Position numbers and translations under genes: made by a program. From Candidatus Bathyarchaeota archaeon (GTDB taxonomy: Archaea > Thermoproteota > Bathyarchaeia > Bathyarchaeales > Bathycorpusculaceae): 64,000 bases of DNA. The notes under the pieces are model-generated. The model did not search any database. It had not been told where the DNA came from and saw only the letters and a list, made by a program, of their open reading frames with translations. Location: assembly GCA_963715865.1 (NCBI GenBank), contig OY970280.1:928001-992000 (forward strand), in the 5' to 3' direction. Below are positions 5,161-18,976 of the stretch, piece by piece (within the stretch, counting starts at the first letter, position 1; the number at the start of each line of letters is the position of its first letter).

Positions 5161-6348
5161 ATGGAAGCCCAAGCCGTTATTAAGTGTCCTGAATGCGGCA
5201 GCGAGAAATTCTTTAAAGACGGGGTAAGGAAACTTTCAAACAAGCAAGAAAAACAGCGTTATGTTTGCCGTGTATGTGGCTACAGATATACATACCCTAC
5301 TAGCTTAAATTCTGTCTCGGACAATTCAGTGAGCAGCCAAATATGCGTCGCGGAGACGAAAAATTTGGAACCAGTGCAGAAAACAAAAGGAAAACTATTC
5401 TGTGCTGGAGATGCAAAACTAAGTGCTGACACCAAAGGATTACTAACACAGTTCTACGCCTACCTAGAAAAAGAAGCCTATTCTGTTGAAAGCGATTACG
5501 TTGATAAAGTTAAGCACCTTGCCGTTCTTGGAGCTAACATTCGCGATCCAGAACACGTTAAAACCGTAATCGGACACATGCAACGGAAAGACGGCCAAAA
5601 AACTAAAAACGGCACTAAAATGCTGTACTGTTATTCCTATGATGCTTTTGTTAAAATGCTTAAAATTCAGTGGGATATGCCTACCTACGTTCAAGAGGAC
5701 CATGATCCTTTTGTTCCTGACGAAACCGAATTAGACGCATTAATCAGCTCTGCTAAATCTAAACTGTTAGCCGCTTACCTACAATGCCTAAAAGAAACGT
5801 TTGGCGACCCCGGCGAAGTGTTAAGAATCAAATATTTAGACGTTGACACCAACAACAAGGCAATAAGCATACGTTACCCCGTAAAAAATCACCTACCACG
5901 AACCCTTCAAGTATCAAACCGACTGTTAGCCATGATTGAAGCACTACCAAAAAAAGACGATAGAGTTTTCCCGACATCTTACGCAAACATGCTTAGACGT
6001 TTCGTGACTATGCGCAAAAGAACGGCTGATATCCACCAAAACCCCAGGCTATTAGCGGTTGACTTCACAGCCTTTAGAACTTGGGCTGGAACCATGATCG
6101 CCTACCACACAAACGGAAACGTGCTAATAGTTAAGAAACTGCTAGGCCACAAACAAATCAAAAACACAATGAAGTACATAGGCAAAATACAGTTCCAAAG
6201 CCAAGACTTTGAAACAACAAGCGCGTCAACCGTTGAGGACATCTTAAAATTGGGTTCTCAAGGCTGGATAGAATACTCAGTTGATAAAATCAACAATGTT
6301 GAATATCACTGTTTCAAGAAGCCTAAGAGGTTTAGCACTTATGTCTAA
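5161..6348 (+). CDS. Tyrosine recombinase/integrase with N-terminal Zn ribbon
   Basis: CPEC...CRVC Zn ribbon; AFRTWAGT, LLGHKQIKNTMKY; C-terminal tail ending HCFKKPKR. The first catalytic Arg position reads ETFGDPGE. Confidence 0.85.
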   Translation: MEAQAVIKCPECGSEKFFKDGVRKLSNKQEKQRYVCRVCGYRYTYPTSLNSVSDNSVSSQICVAETKNLEPVQKTKGKLFCAGDAKLSADTKGLLTQFYAYLEKEAYSVESDYVDKVKHLAVLGANIRDPEHVKTVIGHMQRKDGQKTKNGTKMLYCYSYDAFVKMLKIQWDMPTYVQEDHDPFVPDETELDALISSAKSKLLAAYLQCLKETFGDPGEVLRIKYLDVDTNNKAISIRYPVKNHLPRTLQVSNRLLAMIEALPKKDDRVFPTSYANMLRRFVTMRKRTADIHQNPRLLAVDFTAFRTWAGTMIAYHTNGNVLIVKKLLGHKQIKNTMKYIGKIQFQSQDFETTSASTVEDILKLGSQGWIEYSVDKINNVEYHCFKKPKRFSTYV

Positions 6349-7551: not shown

Positions 7552-7619
7552 GAATAGTACTGATGAGTTGGGAAATTCTTATTGCTTCCGATAGCGCATA
7601 TAGGTGTGGGCTGGCGAGT

Positions 7620-7921
7620 TGGTGTGTGGCTTTCGGACCCAAAAAATGCTGGGTCTGAGGAAACTCCGCCCACGTGTAGAATTGCAGTGCCCCAAGGGTA
7701 CAGGGCGAGAGCCTTGGCTACGGAGCAGAAACGAAACGTCCAATTGGACTTGGCGATGAGACATTTGTGATGTCGAGTGTGCCAGTTTGGAAGCGGTGAA
7801 ACGGCCGTCCTGCAAGTGGAAAGGGCAAACAGTCGCTGATGAGGAATCTACCTGAAGGCGCGGGTAGCCCGATTAGCCGAATGCCACAATAACAGAAGGC
7901 GGGTTACAACCAACACACCAC
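7620..7921 (+). ncRNA. rnpB: RNase P RNA
   Basis: Universal CR-I GAGGAAACTCCGCCC and CR-V AACAGAAGGCGGGTTA. These form P4 with a bulged U (ACTCCGCC/GGCGG-GT). P1 = TGGTGTGTGG with CCAACACACCA. About 300 nt. Confidence 0.92.
7896..7921 (+). repeat. att core copy 1 (3' end of rnpB): AAGGCGGGTTACAACCAACACACCAC
   Basis: 26/26 identical to 12436-12461; the first 25 nt are identical to 18952-18976. Confidence 0.95.
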
Positions 7922-7931
7922 CCCAAATCAC

Positions 7932-8852
7932 TTGTACACCGCCTTAGAAACACCCAACGACACATCAATACTAAACGTATTAATCAACATGAAAAACAAC
8001 AACAAAAGCGACAGCACAATCAAATTTACAAGAAAAGCATTAAACAGATTAAGCAGTAAAGCAAAACTGAATGAACCCAAAGAAATAAAATCATTCATAG
8101 CCAACCTTAAAACAACAAACGCCTACAAAAGAAACCTCTGCATCGCATACAACAAATACGCAAAATACTATAAAATTCAATGGGAAATGCCACTATACCA
8201 ACAGGAAGAACAAAACATAGCACTCCCAACAAAAGAACGAATAGACGCACTCATAGCAAACGCAAGTACAGTAATGTCAACCAAACTAACATTAAGCAAA
8301 GAAACAGGACTACGACCCGTAGAACTATGCAGACTAAAAGTCAAAGACATAGACACCGACACAAACAAAGTTTATCCAATAACCGCTAAACATGGACAAG
8401 CCAGAACACTAAACATAAGCACAAACCTAAGCCAAAGACTTAAAGAATACATAACCAAAAACAAACTACAAAAAGAAGACAAACTTTGGCAAGAAGACGC
8501 AGACCACTACGGAGCAAACTTTCGCGAAATGCGAAACAAATTAGCCATAAAACTTAATGACCCAAAAATAGCTGAAATCAGACTATACGACCTAAGACAT
8601 TACTTCTGCACAATAACACTGCACAACACAAACGACACATACTACACAATGGTACAAATGGGTCACAAACACCTAACAACAACACAAAAATACTTACACC
8701 TAATCGCAAACTCAGGAAACGAAGAATACACAAGCAAAGCAGTACAAACAGGAACACCAACAACACTAAAAGAAATCATGCAACTAATAGATGAAGGATA
8801 CACCAAAGCAGACGAAATCGAAGGAATCCACATCTACAAGAAGAGGAAATAA
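7932..8852 (+). CDS. Tyrosine integrase, int(C) portion of a split integrase
   Basis: Complete tetrad: ETGLRPVEL (R), TAKHG (K), YDLRHYF (D/HxxR), MGHKHLTTTQKY (H, Y). The frame is open upstream through the att core (KAGYNQHTTPNH). Confidence 0.92.
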   Translation: MYTALETPNDTSILNVLINMKNNNKSDSTIKFTRKALNRLSSKAKLNEPKEIKSFIANLKTTNAYKRNLCIAYNKYAKYYKIQWEMPLYQQEEQNIALPTKERIDALIANASTVMSTKLTLSKETGLRPVELCRLKVKDIDTDTNKVYPITAKHGQARTLNISTNLSQRLKEYITKNKLQKEDKLWQEDADHYGANFREMRNKLAIKLNDPKIAEIRLYDLRHYFCTITLHNTNDTYYTMVQMGHKHLTTTQKYLHLIANSGNEEYTSKAVQTGTPTTLKEIMQLIDEGYTKADEIEGIHIYKKRK

Positions 8853-8890
8853 ACAACCCTCTCTTTTCTTCAGACACAAGTCAAACACAT

Positions 8891-8920
8891 GCTACGCTCC
8901 GCTACGCTCCGCTACGCCCC
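8891..8920 (+). repeat. 3 x 10-bp tandem repeat GCTACGCTCC followed by a T-run
   Basis: gctacgctcc gctacgctcc gctacgcccc ttttttt, between the convergent int and Rep operons. Confidence 0.85.
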
Positions 8921-8952
8921 TTTTTTTAACAAAAAACATAAAAACAAAAACA

Positions 8953-9147
8953 TTATGAAAACAAAACCTTCTCAAAAGCCCCACAATCAGGATTAACACA
9001 TACAAACAAATCATTATGAATAACACGAATATCAAATTCAACATAATATTCTAAAATAAAACCACAAGAAGGACACAATTTCACATGTAATTGAGAACCA
9101 AGTTTAGATAAATAAGAACGCTTAGAAACAGGAATATGCCAACTCAT
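8953..9147 (-). CDS. Small Zn-finger protein
   Basis: CPSC...CVNPDC; last gene of an overlapping minus-strand operon. Confidence 0.6.
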   Translation of the reverse strand: MSWHIPVSKRSYLSKLGSQLHVKLCPSCGFILEYYVEFDIRVIHNDLFVCVNPDCGAFEKVLFS

Positions 9148-9425
9148 AAATTAGCTATCACCGCCAAACCAGAAACATCATTATCCAAACCATAACGAAA
9201 CTCCATTTCAACAGAAGACAAATCTTGAAGAACCAACAAAAGAGGAAAAATACCAAAATTACCAAACCGCAAATAAAAACGGTACTGAAACTTACCAATC
9301 CCTTCACAAGCAAAAAAAACAACATCATCCGTCAAATAAAAACCATAAAAAACAGCCTTATCAACCACTTTTTTACCCTTAACAAACTTAACCTCAGAAA
9401 CAGGAACCTCAAAAGATTTATTCAG
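9144..9425 (-). CDS. Hypothetical protein (beta-rich); probably starts at CTG 9425 rather than GTG 9368
   Basis: Frame is open to 9425 with a GAGGTG SD 5 nt upstream; adds NKSFEVPVSEVKFVKGKK before VVDKAVF. Confidence 0.5.
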   Translation of the reverse strand: MNKSFEVPVSEVKFVKGKKVVDKAVFYGFYLTDDVVFFACEGIGKFQYRFYLRFGNFGIFPLLLVLQDLSSVEMEFRYGLDNDVSGLAVIANL

Positions 9426-10560
9426 AGTTACACCTCAAATTACCATCCGAATCCTTAACAAACAAATTACCGCCAAAAGCATCATACATATCCAAAATCA
9501 AATGCCTATGAAAATCAGGCGAACTCTCAACAGTACAAATCTTAACCCCACCGCAACCGCATTGACTAATTCTAACAAGTTCCAAACCGCAAAGAGGACA
9601 AACACGCTTATCCTTCTCAGGCTTATAATGCAACTTATGATAACCAGCCACACCAAACCAAGTCAACGGATAAAACCGTTTACCACCCTTAAGAGAACTA
9701 ATCTTAATCGACGAATGCCCTAACTGATACCAAATCGTACCAACAACAGTTTTACGTTCACCCTCAACCTTACAAATATAACCATCAGTCTTATTCTGCT
9801 CACGGGTCAACTGCTCAAAACCATCACAATGACAAGCCCGATTACAACCCGAAGAAGTACCCCCATGAGAAATCCATTGAGCAAAATCAGGACAATTTCG
9901 ACACCGAGCATAGCTCTCTTTCAGAAAACCAACAATATGCCAATGAGGAGCAAAAAACCACCCTAAACTTGCATCAGAAGTATTCAACTGTTGCCACTCA
10001 CGAAAACCATGATACCGAAAAGCATGAAAGATGACCAAACCGCCAATAATACCCCGCTTAAACGCAATCTTCAACGCCTTAGCATGTAACTTCTCATAAC
10101 TTAAACCATAATCAGACACAGGAACACTCAAAATAATATGCTCTATCTTTCCAAATTGCTTAGAAGCAAACTGTAAACGTTTCTCAGCCTTCCGAGCCTC
10201 ACGAGAAGCCCAACCAAACTTATAACAGACTCTACAAGACGGCTTATTACAATGAATCGAAGCAACATAAACATAAGCCTTATTCGCAAAATTACCAACT
10301 AAACTGTTCACATGACCCTTAACGTTAAGGCATCCTTCTAAATGAGAATGAGAACCACACGAACGATTAGTTTGCTCTTCAAGCCCGACTAACTCAAAAT
10401 CACCATGACGACCCCAAGTCGCATTAACCGCCTTAAAATCAGTCTCAGCAGAAACCTCATCATTCTTCATATCTTTCTGATAAACACGATAAATCTGTTC
10501 AAACTCACTGTCACAATATAAACGCAAAGGAAAAACGCAAAGCGAAACCTTCTTAGTCAA
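9418..10560 (-). CDS. HUH-superfamily rolling-circle replication initiator (Rep) with Zn-binding region
   Basis: HCNKPSCRVC Zn motif; motif I EHIILSVP; motif II APHWHIVG (HUH); motif III WYQLGHSS; C-terminal CPLCG. Confidence 0.78.
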   Translation of the reverse strand: MTKKVSLCVFPLRLYCDSEFEQIYRVYQKDMKNDEVSAETDFKAVNATWGRHGDFELVGLEEQTNRSCGSHSHLEGCLNVKGHVNSLVGNFANKAYVYVASIHCNKPSCRVCYKFGWASREARKAEKRLQFASKQFGKIEHIILSVPVSDYGLSYEKLHAKALKIAFKRGIIGGLVIFHAFRYHGFREWQQLNTSDASLGWFFAPHWHIVGFLKESYARCRNCPDFAQWISHGGTSSGCNRACHCDGFEQLTREQNKTDGYICKVEGERKTVVGTIWYQLGHSSIKISSLKGGKRFYPLTWFGVAGYHKLHYKPEKDKRVCPLCGLELVRISQCGCGGVKICTVESSPDFHRHLILDMYDAFGGNLFVKDSDGNLRCNSE

Positions 10561-10745
10561 ACACCAAGCCCCCCAAGTTTTTCAAAATGAAAATGGCAAC
10601 AATCCTTATTCCGAGCAGGAACCAACAAACCATCTTTCCAATCACACTGAAAGCCAGCTTTAGGATTCAAACGACAAATACAACCATTAGCGTAACAATC
10701 CACATAATCGCAGTCACAAACACCAAAAACAGGAACAGGCATCAT
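10557..10745 (-). CDS. Cys-rich small protein
   Basis: 8 Cys in 62 aa; overlaps both neighbours in the operon. Confidence 0.55.
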   Translation of the reverse strand: MMPVPVFGVCDCDYVDCYANGCICRLNPKAGFQCDWKDGLLVPARNKDCCHFHFEKLGGLGV

Positions 10746-10882
10746 TCAGAACCCCCATTATGCACCTTACGAATAAGCTTAATCAACAAATCAGCCAGCT
10801 CCTTACTAAAAACACCTAAAAACGGAGAAGTAAACACAATAATAGCAATCAAGCCATAGCCAACAGAAGCCAAAACAATCAA
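10742..10882 (-). CDS. Small single-TM protein (46 aa, not in ORF track)
   Basis: TTG start overlapping the upstream TGA; MIVLASVGYGLIAIIVFTSPFLGVFSKELADLLIKLIRKVHNGGSE; stop overlaps the next ATG. Confidence 0.55.
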   Translation of the reverse strand: MIVLASVGYGLIAIIVFTSPFLGVFSKELADLLIKLIRKVHNGGSE

Positions 10883-11151
10883 CGCTCCAAATCTGGAAAA
10901 CCATCCAGCTTATCACAAATCCACGTTAAATGAAACCCATCAAAATGAAAAGAAAACCTATAACGTTTACCGCCAGACCGACAAGCCCCAGAACCCAAAA
11001 CACAGAGGCAAAAAGGCTTACCAAAACGAGTTAAACCAATGAAATTAGCAGAAGGACAAACACTCAAACGGTCTTTTTCAGCCTTACCAACGATAACAGA
11101 ACCAACAACGACTTCTATATTCTTACTCAATCTTAACAAGCTCCAGACCAT
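10879..11151 (-). CDS. Hypothetical protein (element A)
   Basis: Fits the overlapping operon; C-x..-C-x-C-x6-C pattern. Confidence 0.5.
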   Translation of the reverse strand: MVWSLLRLSKNIEVVVGSVIVGKAEKDRLSVCPSANFIGLTRFGKPFCLCVLGSGACRSGGKRYRFSFHFDGFHLTWICDKLDGFPDLER

Positions 11152-11329
11152 CGAATATTAGAAGGGATTTACCCTTATCCAAACATTCAACAGCCCAAAG
11201 CTGATTCTCCATCATCATAAAATACAAATCATCGACACAAAGGTCGAAAACAATACTAAATTCTTTAGAGGCACGTTTATGATAAACATAAACAGACGAA
11301 CCGTTATCACGAAACGCCTTAAGTGCCAT
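11123..11329 (-). CDS. Hypothetical protein, first gene of the Rep operon
   Basis: ATG preceded by GGGG and an upstream TATA-like TTTTTTATAT on the minus strand. Confidence 0.5.
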   Translation of the reverse strand: MALKAFRDNGSSVYVYHKRASKEFSIVFDLCVDDLYFMMMENQLWAVECLDKGKSLLIFDGLELVKIE

Positions 11330-11438
11330 AACCCCTAATGCAATCTACTAATATAAAAAACTTTTCATGTCTATAGCATATACCGTAGCATGATATAGTC
11401 AACGACTATAAAACATTACACACAACAAAAACGAAAAA

Positions 11439-11535
11439 GGGCTTGCGTACCTAACAGATGTTTAAGCCATCTGGCAAGCCCCACACAAAAGGACAAAACA
11501 AAGACAAAGTAACTCTTTTTAGGAAAAGAGATTAC
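11439..11535. other. Candidate replication origin of element A (stem-loops)
   Basis: GGGCTTGC..CAGATG-[TTTAAGC]-CATCTG GCAAGCCC hairpin, then a GTAACTCTTTTT-AGG-AAAAGAGATTAC hairpin; both have counterparts at 17794-17880. Confidence 0.55.
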
Positions 11536-12235
11536 AGAAAAACCTTGAAACTAAACTGGAAGCGCAACACTCACAAAGAGTGTGCGAATTAACGAGCCAT
11601 CTACTCTTTCCAGAAAGAGATAGCAGAAAGCAACGCAACACGGCGAAAAAAGCTAAAAGTGGCGAGCCAGAGGTAAAAATGAGCCAATTTTTTTCCCTAA
11701 GTGCAAGTTCTCCAATTTCACGGAAAAAAAATGCTTGATAGCCCGTATTCCCCTTTTCACATATAATAGAAAAGGGAACCCCGAGCGGTGCCTCATTTTT
11801 ATCCACTTTTCCGAGCTTTTTTCGCCAAGCCAAAAACGAGAAAGAGTGTTAATAATGAAAATATATAGAAAAAGGCTAAAGACCAAACTTTCTTAAAAAA
11901 AGTTACAAAGAACTTATGGAAAAGAAAACATGAACGCATACGCTAACATATTTACGATATACCTGTAAAGCATCATAAACCGTTAAAAAACAGTTAATCT
12001 AAAAACTACAAATTAAAACGCTAAAACAAAAGTGATAAACAGCTAAAAAAAATGTAGAGATTAACCTACACTCAAACAAGCAAATGATAACAAAGTAACC
12101 ATTAAACCACAGGTTAAAAAAAGGTACAAAATCACCACCCCAACAATATCGTAACAAATTGTACCAAATAGAACATTAATGTATCAATAATATATAAAAA
12201 CATATATACAAATATCAATATATCCTAACATACCT

Positions 12236-12382
12236 ATGGTGAAAATTAAAATGGGAAAAACAACAATAATCTTAACCCAAGAAAACGAGAACCAAATCAG
12301 AATACGAAACCGTAAAAAAGGAGATATATCAAACACAATCAACCAAGCATTAGAACAATACTTCAAGAAGGTAGAACAATGA
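12236..12382 (+). CDS. Ribbon-helix-helix (CopG/Arc-like) protein (48 aa, not in ORF track)
   Basis: MVKIKMGKTTIILTQENENQIRIRNRKKGDISNTINQALEQYFKKVEQ: beta strand, helix, KKG turn, helix. Its stop overlaps the int(N) ATG. Confidence 0.75.
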   Translation: MVKIKMGKTTIILTQENENQIRIRNRKKGDISNTINQALEQYFKKVEQ

Positions 12383-12461
12383 CAGAAACAACAATAGAAA
12401 TAATAACAACAGAACCCACAAAAGAACGTACGATTAAGGCGGGTTACAACCAACACACCAC
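12379..12461 (+). CDS. int(N): N-terminal stub of element A integrase
   Basis: MTETTIEIITTEPTKERTI-KAGYNQHTT reads through att copy 2 in the same frame in which att copy 1 leads into int(C). Confidence 0.8.
12436..12461 (+). repeat. att core copy 2
   Basis: AAGGCGGGTTACAACCAACACACCAC, identical to 7896-7921. Confidence 0.95.
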
Positions 12462-12540
12462 GCCCAATTTCTGCTTACAATTGCTAAACTTACTTCTTTT
12501 TGTAAACTGCTTTGTCAACAAAGAACAGCATGATCTGGCA

Positions 12541-13494
12541 TTAATGCAAAACTTGCAAAAGAATAGCAATAATTGCTAAAGAAGCTGCAAAATATGGTGA
12601 TCGTGCTACAGCCTTTAAGGTATCAATGGGCGTGACAACTGTTATCATTGACGATAACTCTGATATTGGGTATTCCTTGTCATCTCTTCCAGTTTTGATA
12701 TTTTTTAAGGCTGTTAAAGCATCTCTAAGATCCTCCTTGCGTTGGGCCACACGCAAAGACTTGAGGAAGAGTTCAATTTGATTCCTGACTACAATCAGTT
12801 CATCATCTTTTCCCGCCAGAAATTCGCAGCAAGCTATCTTGCTGTATTCTTTTAAACCCTCAATACTGACATGGACGACCATAACTTGATTGAGATAGTC
12901 ATTATAAGCGTCTAACCCGGTATCAAAAAGATTTGAAAAGCTCTTTATTATTTTCTTTCTTTCAAGCTCATCTTGTACTTGTCTTACATTTATTGCTTTA
13001 ATTAAGGCTAGTTTAATGTAAATACGAGCCTTCCTATATTTTGATAAAGAGCCGATTAGCAAAAAAACCGATATTAGCAATAATGGTAGCGTAAGATTGA
13101 GAGAATAATCAATTAAAGAGTAAAGTCCTCCATTATTTTTAATCCATTGTGGATAATAAGCAAGCAATAAAATGGAAGTAGCAAACAATAATGTGAAAAT
13201 AAACATAAGGAAGGCAACAAAATATGTTCGGTATTTGTCTATAAAAATGAGGTTGCCTGGGTACAGTTCTTTCTTGCTTAATGAAATATAAATTCGACTA
13301 TGTATTAAAACTGCAGTTGCAAGAATAATTGTCCAAATATAGATAGTTAAAGACGATGGAGCTAAATAATATATAATCTCAAAAATGGTTAAGATGATTA
13401 TGATTAAGCTTAGCTCAATGAGCCTAATGTGTTGCCCATACGAATGATAAAACCTTTCGCTCAGTTTTATTCTCTTAAACGCTTTTGAAAACAT
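12541..13494 (-). CDS. Membrane protein, about 4 N-terminal TMs plus a helical domain
   Basis: 317-aa ORF with hydrophobic segments; no family recognised. Confidence 0.65.
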   Translation of the reverse strand: MFSKAFKRIKLSERFYHSYGQHIRLIELSLIIIILTIFEIIYYLAPSSLTIYIWTIILATAVLIHSRIYISLSKKELYPGNLIFIDKYRTYFVAFLMFIFTLLFATSILLLAYYPQWIKNNGGLYSLIDYSLNLTLPLLLISVFLLIGSLSKYRKARIYIKLALIKAINVRQVQDELERKKIIKSFSNLFDTGLDAYNDYLNQVMVVHVSIEGLKEYSKIACCEFLAGKDDELIVVRNQIELFLKSLRVAQRKEDLRDALTALKNIKTGRDDKEYPISELSSMITVVTPIDTLKAVARSPYFAASLAIIAILLQVLH

Positions 13495-13629
13495 GTGTGA
13501 TTAAATGACCTTTGTGGTTAAATATTTTGGCGTTAGATCAAGGTAGAGTCTTGTTGATTTGTTTTAACTTAAATAAAACGCCTATTCATAGACTGAAACT
13601 CTTCAATTTTTAATTTAACTATTCCCAAT

Positions 13630-14457
13630 ATGCTTAAATTTAGTTCCTCACCAAAGAATTGCAAAGGTCTCTCCATAATGGCAAGTACATTCAGTTTGAA
13701 AAGATCCTATTTGGTGTTAATTCTATTAGCTATTTTTTTTAGCGCCTTATCTTCTTACTTATTTTTTGCTTACAAAGAACAGTGGTTCTCAGCTTATTCT
13801 ACCAGCATTGCTTCAGGGATTGTAGGTTCATTAATAGTGATTTTTCTTATTGACCGAATAATTGAGAGAAACCGAGAAAGGGAACAAATGCAAATGAGAA
13901 AAATTGCTCTGGAAAAGCTGCGCATACCAATTGTATGGCAAATGATGTTGTTATGTAATGTGTATAAAGCTGCTTCAAAAGACAAACCACAGAAGCTACC
14001 ATCCAACTTTCAAGAGATATTTACGGACAATTTTTACACTGAAGTATCATTCCTTGATTTTGCCAAGGATGCTGGCGTTACGCCGAAGACGGATTGGTTC
14101 AACCGCTTGGATTCAGAGCTCCGATTCTTTAAGAAAAAAATTGAGCAAACCATTGATACTTACGCTATTTTTTGTGATAGCTCATTCATTAGTCTGCTTG
14201 AGAAGCTCATCAACTCACACTTTACCTTTTTTATTATTCAGGCAAAAGCTATTCCGATTGTAGACATGCAAATGGGATTCAAACGTCGCTATACTATGTT
14301 CTCAGGAACTGAAGAATTTTTGAAAGAACATGCTCTTCTTATGCTTCAGCTAATTGATTACTTCAATTCGGAAGCTGAAAAACCAATTGAATTTGATACA
14401 AGTATTTGGAGAGATGATGTTTCTCCACTATGGGGTAGCGGGCGAGTTCAAGGTTAG
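13630..14457 (+). CDS. Hypothetical protein, 2 N-terminal TMs plus a soluble domain
   Basis: 275-aa ORF; probable start MASTF at 13678. Confidence 0.65.
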   Translation: MLKFSSSPKNCKGLSIMASTFSLKRSYLVLILLAIFFSALSSYLFFAYKEQWFSAYSTSIASGIVGSLIVIFLIDRIIERNREREQMQMRKIALEKLRIPIVWQMMLLCNVYKAASKDKPQKLPSNFQEIFTDNFYTEVSFLDFAKDAGVTPKTDWFNRLDSELRFFKKKIEQTIDTYAIFCDSSFISLLEKLINSHFTFFIIQAKAIPIVDMQMGFKRRYTMFSGTEEFLKEHALLMLQLIDYFNSEAEKPIEFDTSIWRDDVSPLWGSGRVQG

Positions 14458-14506
14458 CCAATATATAGCAAAAGGAAAAAGCCTAGCTTTATTGATAACC
14501 CACCAT

Positions 14507-14829
14507 CTATTTGGGTTTTCTAAAAGCATGATGCCTTCGGTAGTAATGCAAACAAAGCTGAAGCCATCTTCAGTTAGTCTCTGAGCCTCTTCTGTCGTTT
14601 TAGCAATTGCTGAATAGTATTTGTCTCCCTCAGTTTTGATTAGATGCGTATATACCATTGTCGAGTTTATATTTTTATGACCTAATCTTTCTTGGACATG
14701 CAGAAGGACGTTTGTTTTAGCGTATTCTGTTGAACCAAACCAATGTCTGAGGCTATGAAACTTTATTTGATTAAGCCTTGGATTTTGTAATTTTATCGCA
14801 AGTCTTTTTCTCTGCTTTTCATAACTCCA
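14507..14829 (-). pseudogene. Tyrosine integrase C-terminal remnant
   Basis: Manual translation: KQRKRLAIKLQNPRLNQIKFHSLRHWFGSTEYAKTNVLLHVQERLGHKNINSTMVYTHL...; the N-terminal half is absent; a 1-nt deletion disrupts the terminal LFRKPK-stop. Confidence 0.85.
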
Positions 14830-14840
14830 TCAGTGACGCT

Positions 14841-15167
14841 TCAATTTTGCTTGGATTCTTTGTAGAGAAGGATTAGCCCCGCCAAGATAAGTAATGCTGG
14901 AACTACTCTAAAGATGACATTGAAAAAATAAATCCAACCCCAAGGAATGATGTAGGTTAATACAACTTCCATCCTAAGATAAATGTAGCTAATTACAATG
15001 GGTAAAGCTATCCATCCAACCGCTAGCAAAGCAGAGCCGACACCCATAATTAGGTATCCTTTCTTCTTCATCTTGAGAAAAAAGAAAGTTGAAACTGCTC
15101 CGACCATACCAAATATTATTGCTGGCAAGTAACTATTCAAAAGATCATACAGCAATGTTTCCCACAT
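14841..15167 (-). CDS. Small 3-TM membrane protein
   Basis: 108 aa, three hydrophobic segments. Confidence 0.6.
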   Translation of the reverse strand: MWETLLYDLLNSYLPAIIFGMVGAVSTFFFLKMKKKGYLIMGVGSALLAVGWIALPIVISYIYLRMEVVLTYIIPWGWIYFFNVIFRVVPALLILAGLILLYKESKQN

Positions 15168-15604
15168 TTTTACGCCCTCAATTGGTTAGGTATTAAGTCT
15201 TACCGCTTATAATTTTTTCAATAACTTAACCTGTAACCCGCTAAACAACACGAAATTCTATTAGTGATTGCCAATTAAAGATTAGATTATGCCTTAGATT
15301 TTCTCAAGATATGACAGTATATCTCAAGTTAAGTCTCGGCGTCGCTCCGCTCCACCTCGACGTTTACAAAATCAACCAACCGCGTTTTCGATGGCAAAAC
15401 TAAAGTCAATTCCAATACCTAAACCACTTCTAAGAAACAGAACTCGGCAATCAACCTTTGAGACTGACTTTATAATGGTTCAATTTGATATTCCTTAAAT
15501 ATAGTGTTACAACAATTAGCCTAGAATTGTCGATCCGATGTTTTAGTATTGCATGAAAATGCCAAAAGTTTTATCTTGTCTCTTAAACAATACTTAAACT
15601 TTAA

Positions 15605-16156
15605 TTGAAGGTAAGACAAATGGGAAGACTTAGCCTTGCATTCAAAACAAAGTATGGCGATATCAGAATTGAAGGCGATTCACTCGCAGATTTCAAGAAT
15701 ATTTTGCTAGAAATTGGAGTTTCAGAGATAGACATAGAGAGTATTAGAAACACAATCACATCCCAAATCGAGCATCAAGACATTATTGTTAGTATTCCTT
15801 CAATTCCAATTAGTTCATCAAAACCCGAGCTTACGGGAGTAATTGAGTATGGAAATGATGGGACTCCTCATATCACAATATCTTCTGACAAATTAACTGC
15901 AAGAGAAGTTATAGGTCTTCTTCTGTATACAAAAAGTCCAAATTCAATTTCCATGGGCGAACTTACTAACTTAGTAAAAAACAACTGGAAAAATGTTGAT
16001 ATGACGCAGATTTCGGCTAATCTAAGTTTTATGCGAGCTTATGTAATTAAAGAAGGGACAAGAGGCTCTTATTCATACAGACTCTCTGGGTCGGGCAAAG
16101 AATGGATTGAAAATGAACTGCTTCCAAAACTAAGGATGAAGTCAGTAAAGGCTTAG
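15605..16156 (+). CDS. Hypothetical protein with C-terminal winged helix
   Basis: LTAREVIGLLLY...SMGELTNLV...ISANLS...YSYRLSGSGKEWIE resembles a wHTH; abuts the next gene. Confidence 0.6.
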   Translation: MKVRQMGRLSLAFKTKYGDIRIEGDSLADFKNILLEIGVSEIDIESIRNTITSQIEHQDIIVSIPSIPISSSKPELTGVIEYGNDGTPHITISSDKLTAREVIGLLLYTKSPNSISMGELTNLVKNNWKNVDMTQISANLSFMRAYVIKEGTRGSYSYRLSGSGKEWIENELLPKLRMKSVKA

Positions 16157-16996
16157 GTGTGCCTTATGGGTGATGCTGAGAGAGATGGGGTCTGGTTGGG
16201 AATAGCATTGCAGAGTCTCATAACACTAGGGACAACTAAAAACGTGGTTAAGGAACAGGGTGGGATTTCAGATATTTTAGGCGAACTTATCGCGACCTAT
16301 AACAGAAGTGGAATTTCTGGAAATTTGCTAGCCGAAGCTCAGAGATGGGCGAATTATTTTAGAGACAATTATGCAGGAAATGAAAGTTTAAGACAAGCTG
16401 ACTCGGATAGGTTTGTTGCAGACTGCAGTAATTGGACTAAGTCTTTGATGGATATAATGAAGGAAAGGTTTGCTCACCCGAAGGAACTTTATGATAGACT
16501 GCCCAAAATTGATTTCATTCTTGATTCAATCAAGCAAATACAAACAGTAGAGCATCAATTTGTTTGTACAACACCCAATTCTCGCATTATTAAAGAAAAA
16601 GCCTCCGCAGCAATTGACGCAACTAATCAAGGGGATGTAATCCTTTTAACTGGTTATTTTGATAATGCTTTAGTTGACAAATTGAGTAGAGCATTGAGAC
16701 GAGGGGTTCAGGTTCGGTTAATCGTTCCAACCTACCATGCGAATGAGCATGATAATATTAATGCAACTAGAAGAGTTAGAACTGCAAATGGTCAGGTAAA
16801 ACAGCACGATTCAAATCACGCCAGACTAATGGTTTTCGGTGTAAGAGAAGCTATGGTTTCCTCTGCAGACCCAAAGACGGATGGTTTAGACCAAAATTAC
16901 GAAGCTGGAATTTGGACCACCAACAGAACCATAATCCAAAACTGCAAGGATTTTTTTGAAGAGATTTGGAATGAAGCATTAGATTGGAATATGTAG
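16157..16996 (+). CDS. Phospholipase D-fold (PLD/Nuc/TrmB-like) domain protein with N-terminal helical domain
   Basis: ILLTGYF...ALRRGVQVRLIV...NHARLMVFGVREAMVSSAD...NYEAGI...FFEEIW: PLD topology with a degenerate HxK-x4-D-x6-GSxN. Confidence 0.75.
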   Translation: MCLMGDAERDGVWLGIALQSLITLGTTKNVVKEQGGISDILGELIATYNRSGISGNLLAEAQRWANYFRDNYAGNESLRQADSDRFVADCSNWTKSLMDIMKERFAHPKELYDRLPKIDFILDSIKQIQTVEHQFVCTTPNSRIIKEKASAAIDATNQGDVILLTGYFDNALVDKLSRALRRGVQVRLIVPTYHANEHDNINATRRVRTANGQVKQHDSNHARLMVFGVREAMVSSADPKTDGLDQNYEAGIWTTNRTIIQNCKDFFEEIWNEALDWNM

Positions 16997-17409
16997 ACAT
17001 TGCCCAAGTTGGCAACTATATGCAAGAACCTGTCTAAATGACGCGAATAGAATCCTGTCATAGTCAGGCAGACTTGTGAACTATCGCAAACATCAAGACC
17101 GAGTCAAAAGGGGAACCCCACGATAAACTCGGTTTCCGAGCTTGGAACTGCACGAAACTCAGGCTAAAACCAAGCTATCACTTGCCTTTCCTATGCTCGA
17201 AGGAAAGAAAAAAGGGTTATGAGCTTAAACTACTTTAAAGGATGCGTTCCCTGAATGCATCAACAAATGGAGTAGCTTAACCCCAAACTCCAGAACCCCA
17301 GACTCCTTAGGGGTTCTTACAAGCAACTGACACCTCGCTTAGCGAGTACACCTCTCCTAAAGGGCACCCCCTCGCAAGCGAGGACTCTGTCTTACAAAAA
17401 AGTAAGTAC

Positions 17410-17703
17410 TTAATGCAAATTATTCTTGGGTTTATAGATTATGAATGTGTCTGGGTCTGTTTTGTTTATAGACCGCTTTGTTTTCCACATACTGCCAGCT
17501 TGGTAGGTAAGTTGATGTTTCATTAATATTTCTTGTATGCGTTTTTTTGTTTCTTCATCAAGGGCTGTTTTTATAGTAATTTGGTACCCTCCCATCATTG
17601 ACAAAGAGGCGTTAGAAGATGATAATTCCAAATAATGACCATCAAGACCACTACAATTGTCAAGGAGTTCCTTCAGAACCGATATGGCTTCTTCACGTTT
17701 CAA
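17410..17703 (-). CDS. Hypothetical protein
   Basis: 97-aa ORF with ATG and plausible composition. Confidence 0.55.
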   Translation of the reverse strand: MKREEAISVLKELLDNCSGLDGHYLELSSSNASLSMMGGYQITIKTALDEETKKRIQEILMKHQLTYQAGSMWKTKRSINKTDPDTFIIYKPKNNLH

Positions 17704-17793
17704 AACAATCCCCTATAATTCTCTTAAGAACTTCTCCTAAAAAAGATTCGGTAATACTCTCTTCAAAGGGAGTAGCATCGCTCCCGACTCCCC

Positions 17794-17880
17794 CCTTTAG
17801 TTTAAGCCTAAAGGAAACCCCCTGCCTCTAAGGAATAAAATGAGAATTAGATAAGTAACTTTCTTAGAAAGAAAGGTTAC
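17794..17880. other. Origin-like stem-loops of element B
   Basis: CCTTTAG-[TTTAAGC]-CTAAAGG and GTAACTTTCT-TAGAA-AGAAAGGTTAC, matching the loop and arrangement at 11455-11535. Confidence 0.55.
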
Positions 17881-18179
17881 AAAGAACAATTACTCTATGT
17901 CTGCACAAGAGTAATCAGAAAGCCGTTTTTTTGGCACCCCAAGACCCAAAAAAACCAACAACACCCACCAAGCCATCAAACCACAGTTAAGTAAAAACAC
18001 CTCAGGTAGCGAACAACTTTGGTGCAGAGCACCACCTTTCGCACCTAAGGACTCTGTTTTTTGCTCAGACAAGAAACAACAAAAGAGGAAAGTGAAAGAT
18101 TATTTTATTGTGTTTAGCGCGCGCGGATGTCTGCATCCCTTCATTTGACTCTCCATTTTTTAAATTCATCCAAGTTTTC

Positions 18180-18650
18180 TTAGGATTGCTTAGGTTTTTT
18201 AAGCATTGAACCAGCATACAGCCCGATGAAATATACTACCACAGAAAGGACAACATCGATTAACACTGTCAGCGCGAAATAAGCGAACCAATCGTAATTT
18301 GTCCACGAGCCCGTAGAGAATGTACTCTGGATGGAGTCTTTGAAAGCAGGACTTGCCAGCGGAGTGCCAAAGAAAGCTACAAGGAATATCATCAGCCCAA
18401 CCGTACTCAACATAACTATGCTGCCTATCGCTTTCAGTCTTGATTCCTCCTTAATCTGAGCAGCAAAAACGTAGCCGACTATCAGCGAAGTTACAATATT
18501 CGAAATAATGCCAGCAACAATAGTCATGGAGTTGTTGTTCAGTGGAGCAAATAGTACGAACAAGACAGCATCAAACAGTAAACTACTCACGAATAATGAA
18601 GCTGCAGCTATAACCACGTCACTAAATTTCAACCAATCACCTCCTCCCAA
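18180..18650 (-). CDS. Multi-pass membrane protein
   Basis: About 4 TM segments; probable start near LKFSDVV. Confidence 0.65.
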   Translation of the reverse strand: MGGGDWLKFSDVVIAAASLFVSSLLFDAVLFVLFAPLNNNSMTIVAGIISNIVTSLIVGYVFAAQIKEESRLKAIGSIVMLSTVGLMIFLVAFFGTPLASPAFKDSIQSTFSTGSWTNYDWFAYFALTVLIDVVLSVVVYFIGLYAGSMLKKPKQS

Positions 18651-18915
18651 ACTGAGCGCAAAAATCTATTTCATTATTCTTGGCTTAAATAATTTGTGTT
18701 GTTGATTCATTTACGGTTGCATTTTTTTTGTTTTTTTAAGAATGTTTGATATTTCCGTTCTTATTAGGCTTGTTTTGTTCGACGCTCTCCATACTCTAAA
18801 TATCAAAACTAAAATTCGGTTTACTTAACAGTGTCTTCACAACCTGAGTTGCCACAAGAAGTAACCGTCTAAAAGCTTATAACTAGACATTAACAATAAG
18901 AACACAGGGATAAAA

Positions 18916-18976
18916 ATGAGTAAAGAAACAAGTAAAAAATTACTAAGGCTAAAGGCGGGTTACAACCAACACACCA
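18916..18976 (+). CDS. int(N)-like stub of element B
   Basis: ATG 18916: MSKETSKKLLRL-KAGYNQHT, same frame through the att core as element A; TATA-like AAAAGCTTATAA about 40 nt upstream. Confidence 0.65.
18952..18976 (+). repeat. att core copy 3 (outermost attR)
   Basis: AAGGCGGGTTACAACCAACACACCA, 25/25 identical. Confidence 0.95.

Follow-up and report, generated by a model that had tools for sequence, protein, structure and literature searches.

Integrases whose attachment (att) site lies within their own gene are known from archaeal elements such as SSV1, SSV2, pTN3 and pT26-2, which carry the SSV-type (type I, or "suicidal") enzymes (PMC8371274; PMC7253208). The suicidal integrases have been described as one monophyletic PF16795 group of probably single origin, and the documented targets of the self-disrupting archaeal integrases are tRNA genes (PMC8371274). 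The signature KxxR marks the SSV1 type and R...YxxR...Y the pNOB8 type (PMC8371274). Furthermore, the same att can be translated in alternate frames by different suicidal integrases, and out-of-frame hybrid elements occur (PMC7253208). Here we analyze a 4,540-bp integrated element, named element A, at the 3' end of the gene for RNase P RNA (rnpB) in a genome of Candidatus Bathyarchaeota archaeon. The analyzed window comprises 64,000 nucleotides (nt) of the forward strand (GCA_963715865.1, contig OY970280.1, positions 928,001 to 992,000), and coordinates are those of the window unless a locus is named. The arrangement of this element and of its relatives suggests that its att site probably lies inside the integrase open reading frame (ORF) and that the gene was parted on integration. 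For the integrase family as a whole, the sequence comparisons make such a split-gene architecture highly probable.

The host genome is closed and has a size of 2.35 Mb, and the relatives of the host are Bathyarchaeia metagenome-assembled genomes from peat and sediment. The integration target rnpB (7614-7918, plus strand) matches the Rfam model RF00373 over positions 1-288 of 288, scoring 188.6 bits where the gathering threshold is 84; it encodes a complete archaeal RNase P RNA and stays full length after integration. Its last 23 nt fall within the first copy of a direct repeat (7896-7928 and 12436-12468; 33 nt at 94% identity, 26 nt exact, spacing 4540 bp). The exact 26-nt repeat defines att copy 1 (attL core; 7896-7921, plus strand), which is the 3' end of rnpB, and att copy 2 (12436-12461, plus strand). 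According to the structure line of the Rfam alignment, att copy 1 consists of GGCGGG followed by the 3' strand of P1. The GGCGGG is complementary to CCGCC at 7666-7670, a pairing which, from the established architecture of RNase P, we take to be of the P4 type.

A third core copy, att copy 3, was found at 18952-18976 (plus strand); the window contains three occurrences of the 22-nt core, the third at 18954-18975, where 0.00 would be expected from shuffled sequences. Because of this third copy, the locus is read as a tandem array in the order rnpB, att copy 1, element A, att copy 2, element B (6,516 bp), att copy 3 and a vapBC-like flank. Att copy 2 accordingly serves both elements, as the attR of element A and as the left att of element B. 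The latter (12462-18951) is the second one of the tandem and is bounded by the core copies 2 and 3. The original prediction, made from the letters of the window, has to be corrected in that the second, 6.5-kb element and no host DNA lies to the right of 12461. In G002, a genome of the same genus, rnpB ends directly at a homologue of the vapBC flank that lies behind att copy 3. This represents the empty site, and elements A and B are therefore insertions. In G002 (L096, reverse-complement 1501-2546) a degenerate repeat of the rnpB 3' end, 53 nt long, was additionally observed behind the vapBC-like module next to rnpB, a layout that looks as if the vapBC-like pair were the remnant of an older insertion at the rnpB site.

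When positions 7922-12461 were circularized in silico, a 4,540-bp circle with a single integrase ORF of 337 amino acids (aa) was obtained, in agreement with the ORF of about 340 aa that had been expected from ATG 12379 to 8852 upon joining att copy 2 to copy 1. It consists of ATG 12379 and the 19 codons that it opens, the 26-bp core (codons 20-28), a short linker and a complete tyrosine recombinase. In the integrated state, nothing interrupts the integrase frame between 7893 and its stop codon at 8850-8852. Int(C) (codons 20-337; 7896-8852, plus strand) contains the att-encoded KAGYNQHTT, the linker, the whole XerA-like two-domain recombinase and a C-terminal beta-rich tail. Int(N) (12379-12435, plus strand) comprises the ATG and 18 further codons (MTETT..., Thr/Glu-rich) and belongs to the sole start-bearing frame that runs into att copy 2. 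This frame enters the copy as KAGYNQHTT, in the same frame as Int(C), and in the integrated state it runs on into element B as an ORF of 66 aa. The sequence GAAGGT is located 7 nt upstream of ATG 12379, and the stop codon of a small ORF of 48 aa (12236-12382, plus strand) overlaps this ATG as ATGA.

The small ORF probably encodes a ribbon-helix-helix (RHH) protein, as indicated by a language-model look-alike search (feature score 0.93 to RHH_1 clusters in the language-model atlas). No significant match was found in Pfam, PHROGs or NCBIfam and, because Pfam finds nothing, the RHH assignment comes solely from the language-model search. Of the RHH gene proposed earlier to overlap the start of int(N), the overlap could thus be confirmed, while the identity of the protein is a probable one. 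In the related elements, no convincing homologue of the small ORF was obtained by tblastn, and an rhh-int operon could accordingly not be demonstrated to be conserved.

A second Int(N)-like ORF (MSKETSKKLLRL; 18916-18976, plus strand) runs into att copy 3 from ATG 18916 through 12 codons, again in the Int(C) frame, and joining att copy 1 to att copy 3 would give an integrase of 330 aa. The sequences to the left of att copies 2 and 3 thus both enter the core in the frame of Int(C), and in each case this is the only frame with a start codon. The left arm of att copy 3 bears the motif ATTACTAAG, which is common to relatives. With respect to element B itself, no intact integrase of the family of the element A integrase was found in it; a C-terminal integrase-like fragment is located on its minus strand at 14563-14829, or at approximately 14428-14829 in a wider delimitation. 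Element B presents an in-frame Int(N)-like ORF at att copy 3 despite the loss of its integrase. Possibly this element is a partner that has decayed or is non-autonomous, excisable together with element A or by the integrase of element A.

The element A integrase belongs to the tyrosine recombinase superfamily (PF00589) by its catalytic residues and its two-domain fold. The residues invariant in the family are R141, K166, Y232-D-L-R235 (a YxxR and not a KxxR box), H258 and Y267. At E-values up to 1, Int(C) matched PF00589 alone (6e-17), and neither PF16795 nor PF07935 was found with Pfam, whereas the SSV1 integrase used as a control matched PF16795 at 1.5e-61 and PF07935 at 2.6e-34. The alignment of both enzymes by hhalign reached a probability of 0.2%. 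Foldseek gave a probability of 1.00 to XerA, IntI, the Tn1549 integrase, Cre and the lambda integrase, of which XerA and IntI were the best, and the closest solved relatives by sequence and fold are archaeal XerA and the integron integrase (PDB 4a8e, 5hxy and 2a3v). With the NCBIfam model of XerA, NF040815, residues 30-278 align to profile positions 5-263 of 263. The score of 79.8 bits lies under the cut-off of 220, and hence the enzyme is not a XerA orthologue. The two-domain architecture over residues 30-278 is shared with XerA and the integron integrase; unlike XerA, the element A integrase is located on a mobile element with att sites, and it is extended at the N-terminus by an additional leader and at the C-terminus by a conserved tail of about 40 aa. 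The phage and plasmid collections contained no match to the integrase from an archaeal virus or plasmid, and no close relative was found in IMG/VR, where the best sequence was 29% identical. Another tyrosine-recombinase-like gene, 30% identical to the integrase of element A, is located in the window at 5533-6321 (plus strand), about 1.3 kb upstream of rnpB, and appears to be part of a different, upstream element.

Compared at the sequence level with the SSV-type systems, the locus has in common the position of attP within the int ORF, the parting of this gene upon integration into an int(N) and an int(C) portion, the translation of att and the archaeal host. As in the SSV-type systems, too, one att is read in different frames by relatives of the element A integrase, and some of their pairs are out of frame. 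It differs from them in the lack of PF16795 and PF07935 and in the YDLR box in place of KxxR, in its target, which is the rnpB 3' end and not a tRNA gene, and in its hosts, the family of element A being found in mesophilic Bathyarchaeia of peat and sediment and the SSV-type integrases in hyperthermophiles. Moreover, att is located about 64-78 codons into the SSV1 gene, inside a conserved N-terminal domain, whereas in element A it occupies codons 20-28, within a leader predicted to be disordered. The term "SSV-type", applied to this integrase in the original prediction, therefore suits the way in which the layout works, for which the comparative evidence speaks; membership of the XerA-like enzyme in the SSV family is rejected. 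With the pNOB8 type (type II), which could be compared by description only, it shares the R...YxxR...Y signature, and some subclades of its family likewise keep an intact gene after integration. In contrast to that type, the ORF of element A and of most of the clade spans the core, with its start on the far side. Element A probably does not retain an intact integrase gene after integration, as the ORF is open through the core and neither ATG nor GTG, but only a TTG, is found between the core and helix 1.

As regards rnpB as a target, a presumed phage-inducible chromosomal island of Clostridium novyi sensu lato is integrated in this gene (PMC8473940). That island has the same target, in a bacterial host and with an unrelated integrase, and no split of the integrase has been reported for it. 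Our full-text literature searches turned up no description of integration into rnpB in archaea, and RNase P is mentioned neither in the 2021 review (PMC8371274) nor in the Thaumarchaeota mobilome paper.

We surveyed relatives at 76 genome loci and 79 metagenome loci (labelled L0xx, L1xx or L2xx below). The integrase has at least 461 homologues, and the JGI metagenome scan gave at least 537 relatives. At 26 of the 76 genome loci rnpB is located upstream in the same orientation, and in 25 of these 26 it directly adjoins the integrase gene; the same arrangement was observed in about 57 of the 79 metagenome loci. The integrase frame is open through the core in 21 of the rnpB-docked genome loci. 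Many annotated integrase N-termini are nothing but rnpB 3' sequence translated in one frame or another, and across the relatives the identical core is read in all three frames (KAGY.., RRVT.. and KGGL..). The N-terminal extension covering KAGYNQHT, whose absence would have spoken against the original prediction, is present in homologues. More distant relatives, at 30-37% identity, adjoin tRNA genes (Gln, Val, Ala, Arg and Pro) and read through them.

Several observations bear on the translation start, which probably lies at or to the left of the core. A methionine at 7989 is kept in more than 90% of the homologues, and codons -7 to -1 before it vary mostly at their third positions. The residues just before this methionine form helix 1 in the AlphaFold2 (AF2) model. 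The coding constraint ahead of the methionine indicates that translation starts upstream of it, and the methionine itself was rejected as the true start on the basis of the coding periodicity of the seven prior codons and of helix 1. Furthermore, in 18 of the 21 copies that are open through the core, the stretch from the core to helix 1 is free of ATG, GTG and TTG, from which follows a start at or left of the core. Four contigs without rnpB (L085, L086, L087 and L168) show what appears to be the unsplit form of the gene, with a GTG, 7-8 codons, the core and the integrase in succession, and with a purine-rich AAAAAGGGGAAC-type motif ahead of the GTG; L086 additionally encodes the Rep-like protein of the element described below. 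Terminal overlaps, which would prove circularity, were sought in the rnpB-less contigs and none was found. A palindromic motif, GGGAGATATCTCC or a close variant, occurs in L085 (98-115 and 396-413) and in L087 (approximately 830), where the repeats sit upstream of and inside the short leader of these GTG-type unsplit integrases. As another possibility, an in-frame ATG of rnpB could re-arm Int(C) as a general mechanism. This was also rejected, such an ATG being found in only about 6 of the 21 relatives, which corresponds to chance, and being blocked here by TAA 7890.

In the AF2 model of the att-to-stop translation (mean predicted local distance difference test, pLDDT, 85), the recombinase fold starts at about residue 22, the first helix spans residues 23-35, and residues 1-19 have a pLDDT below 50. 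Among the relatives, the length of the Int(N) peptides varies between 2 and about 75 codons. All that they have in common is a richness in Thr, Glu and Lys and, in some cases, the initial residues (MTE.., MTTE.. or MSKET..). Int(N) is thus predicted to be a short, unconserved and disordered leader and not a domain.

A further argument comes from the covariation of frames. We considered the elements in which attL-Int(C) and the next core copy lie on one contig, and scored the frame that enters attR with a start before any stop. Of 15 cognate attL/attR pairs, 11 have a start-bearing ORF to the left of attR that agrees in frame with Int(C) (element A of the window, L013, L014a, L019, L022, L035, L140, L164, L170, L171 and L212), and all three frames are represented among these matching pairs. 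The binomial probability of this result is 0.0018 against a chance of 1/3. As an internal control, junctions with a left arm that is not rnpB and stems from another element or from an unknown source matched in about 6 of 19 cases, which is the chance level. The proposal that a segment of rnpB doubles as integrase coding sequence is thus supported by homologues that read through the core, by the covariation of cognate frames and by unsplit forms that start to the left of the core.

Several points weigh against the split of the integrase gene. The in-frame join of element A, which the original prediction had taken as evidence, is present in the sequence. However, the plus strand of element A is rich in A and C and poor in T, and as a consequence an open frame begun by ATG runs into 25% of its positions. 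A join by chance would thus occur about once in four, so the in-frame join is not significant alone and the case rests on the relatives. Among these, the frames disagree in three cognate pairs (L018, L021 and L206) and are ambiguous in one (L159), and the binomial value is optimistic because related elements are not independent. Many rnpB-less junctions are without an in-frame start, which would count against the split if some of them are free circles and not tandem junctions. Additionally, subclades of the same family at 50-57% identity (L015, L016, L017, L042, L054, L144, L157, L199 and L204) end the frame through the core with a stop, use a downstream start of their own (M/V-DFKYKRPVITPC.., MPYRN..PRPVIT.. 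or MQ.RD.AERSA..) and stay intact on integration. Split and non-split states therefore coexist in one family.

The strongest alternative is that the element A integrase is not split at all and is of the lambda or pNOB8 type, with attP just upstream of a gene that starts at TTG 7932 and with the ORF from ATG 12379 being fortuitous or unrelated. The TTG (7932-7934, plus strand) is the sole possible start between the core and helix 1; it could initiate a protein of 306 aa that keeps helix 1 and every folded part, and the leader that would be dispensed with is disordered and unconserved. The chance rate given above and the non-split subclades are compatible with this explanation, and at L021 an ATG of its own after the core is combined with an out-of-frame ORF at attR. 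Nevertheless, it leaves unexplained that the ORFs to the left of att copies 2 and 3 are both in the Int(C) frame, each as the only frame with a start. ATG 12379 is preceded by GAAGGT and overlapped by the small RHH-like ORF, whereas no purine-rich motif was found upstream of TTG 7932. As 18 of 21 relatives have no start codon available between core and helix 1, and as the frames agree in cognate pairs and only at chance level at non-cognate junctions, we consider an unsplit integrase in element A unlikely.

With regard to the arms of att, a DNA motif, AAATTACTAAG, was observed 8-10 nt to the left of the core in L013, L014, L018, L021, L035, L047, L076, L140, L170 and L171 and in the window at 18938-18946; it is absent from the left arm of element A itself. 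The motif falls in different reading frames, which points to a protein-binding site rather than a conserved peptide; it is probably a binding site of the arm type.

If the integrase gene of element A is indeed split, the excised circle, the existence of which we infer, would carry the 337-codon integrase ORF with its real start at ATG 12379, translationally coupled to the small RHH-like ORF, and the enzyme made from it would be active. Recombination of attP with the end of rnpB would leave rnpB intact and would set Int(C) directly behind it, without a promoter, a ribosome-binding site or an ATG, and presumably silent, while the RHH-like ORF and Int(N) would be stranded 4.5 kb away. Integration would in this manner act on the expression of the integrase, through the loss of promoter and start, and not on the fold of the enzyme, because the part that is detached is a disordered, unconserved leader and no domain.

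The remaining genes of element A are consistent with a small replicon. Outside the plus-strand integrase and RHH-like ORFs, all of its ORFs are on the minus strand, where seven form a block at 8953-11329. One of these encodes a 380-aa Rep-like protein (9418-10560, minus strand) with invariant Cys/His clusters suggestive of a zinc finger, H206-x-H208 and Y278, which is kept in at least 20 related elements and always opposite to int. No match for it was found in Pfam, PHROGs or NCBIfam, and Foldseek against the PDB gave nothing significant. Its AF2 model (pLDDT 76) gave weak matches with VIA-align, with Z of merely 4-5, and the top rows were HUH Rep nuclease domains (SIRV1 ORF119, Vientovirus Rep, pMV158 RepB and AAV Rep). 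The plus strand of element A (7922-12435) contains 43.8% A, 24.4% C, 19.4% T and 12.4% G. The GC skew goes down to -0.49 and the AT skew up to +0.56, regardless of gene orientation, and the rest of the window is balanced. Such a skew is compatible with asymmetric replication, by a rolling circle or a single-stranded DNA intermediate, and together with the Rep-like protein it would fit a small rolling-circle replicon. Between the integrase and the minus-strand block, at 8891-8927 and beginning about 40 nt past the integrase stop, we observed three tandem copies of the 10-nt unit GCTACGCTCC, the third slightly different, followed by seven T. This array may be a terminator or a protein-binding array.

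Traces of mobility were sought in public data. The exact attP junction of element A had no match in metagenome contigs or IMG/VR, and nothing was found in IMG/VR with the generic pattern of left arm plus core. Among the sequencing runs, only peat metagenomes share 5-7% of the sequence words. In the peat metagenome contigs the depth is high on the rnpB side and low over element A, and the joints near 7923 to 12435 are few, with sides of 25-32 nt at 90% likeness, which give no usable evidence on excision. It could be argued from the missing attP junction, from the lost integrase of element B and from the decayed copies that are common among relatives (L032, L076, L143 and L081) that element A is a fixed and inactive relic, with a split that dates from the past, a circle that has ceased to form and an array that records past integrations. 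Such a relic seems improbable, given that Int(C) is intact with all family-invariant catalytic residues, that the gene of the Rep-like protein and the small ORFs are intact, that att copies 1 and 2 are identical over 26 nt and that the extreme strand skew has not been erased. The idea that the repeats arose by duplicating the rnpB end locally, instead of being att sites of a mobile element, for which the partial duplicate of the rnpB 3' end near rnpB in G002 might be cited, can practically be dismissed, as the DNA between the repeats encodes an integrase and a Rep-like protein common to many elements, has a foreign composition and is absent from the congener, and as the same integrase is found at the same site in dozens of genomes.

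Taken together, we cautiously favor a comprehensive interpretation in which a second, independently evolved lineage of self-splitting integrases (XerA-like, with YxxR and without PF16795) exists in mesophilic Bathyarchaeia. According to the same interpretation, integration would be a switch of promoter and start codon and not a split of domains; attP would lie in a disordered leader, so that any of the three frames across the core of a ribozyme gene (the P4 and P1 3' strands) is tolerated; the split and non-split states would interconvert; and the small Rep-encoding replicons would also use tRNA genes. If this is true, the layout with att inside the gene arose more than once and can be viable simply because the att site is located in a dispensable leader, and the split and non-split members at 50-57% identity form a natural series in which the purpose of the "suicidal" arrangement could be studied. 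The self-splitting layout would then be found in an unrelated-looking, XerA-like family, in abundant archaea of soil and sediment and at the catalytic-core end of rnpB, and rnpB would join the conserved RNA genes that serve archaeal elements as stable docking sites.

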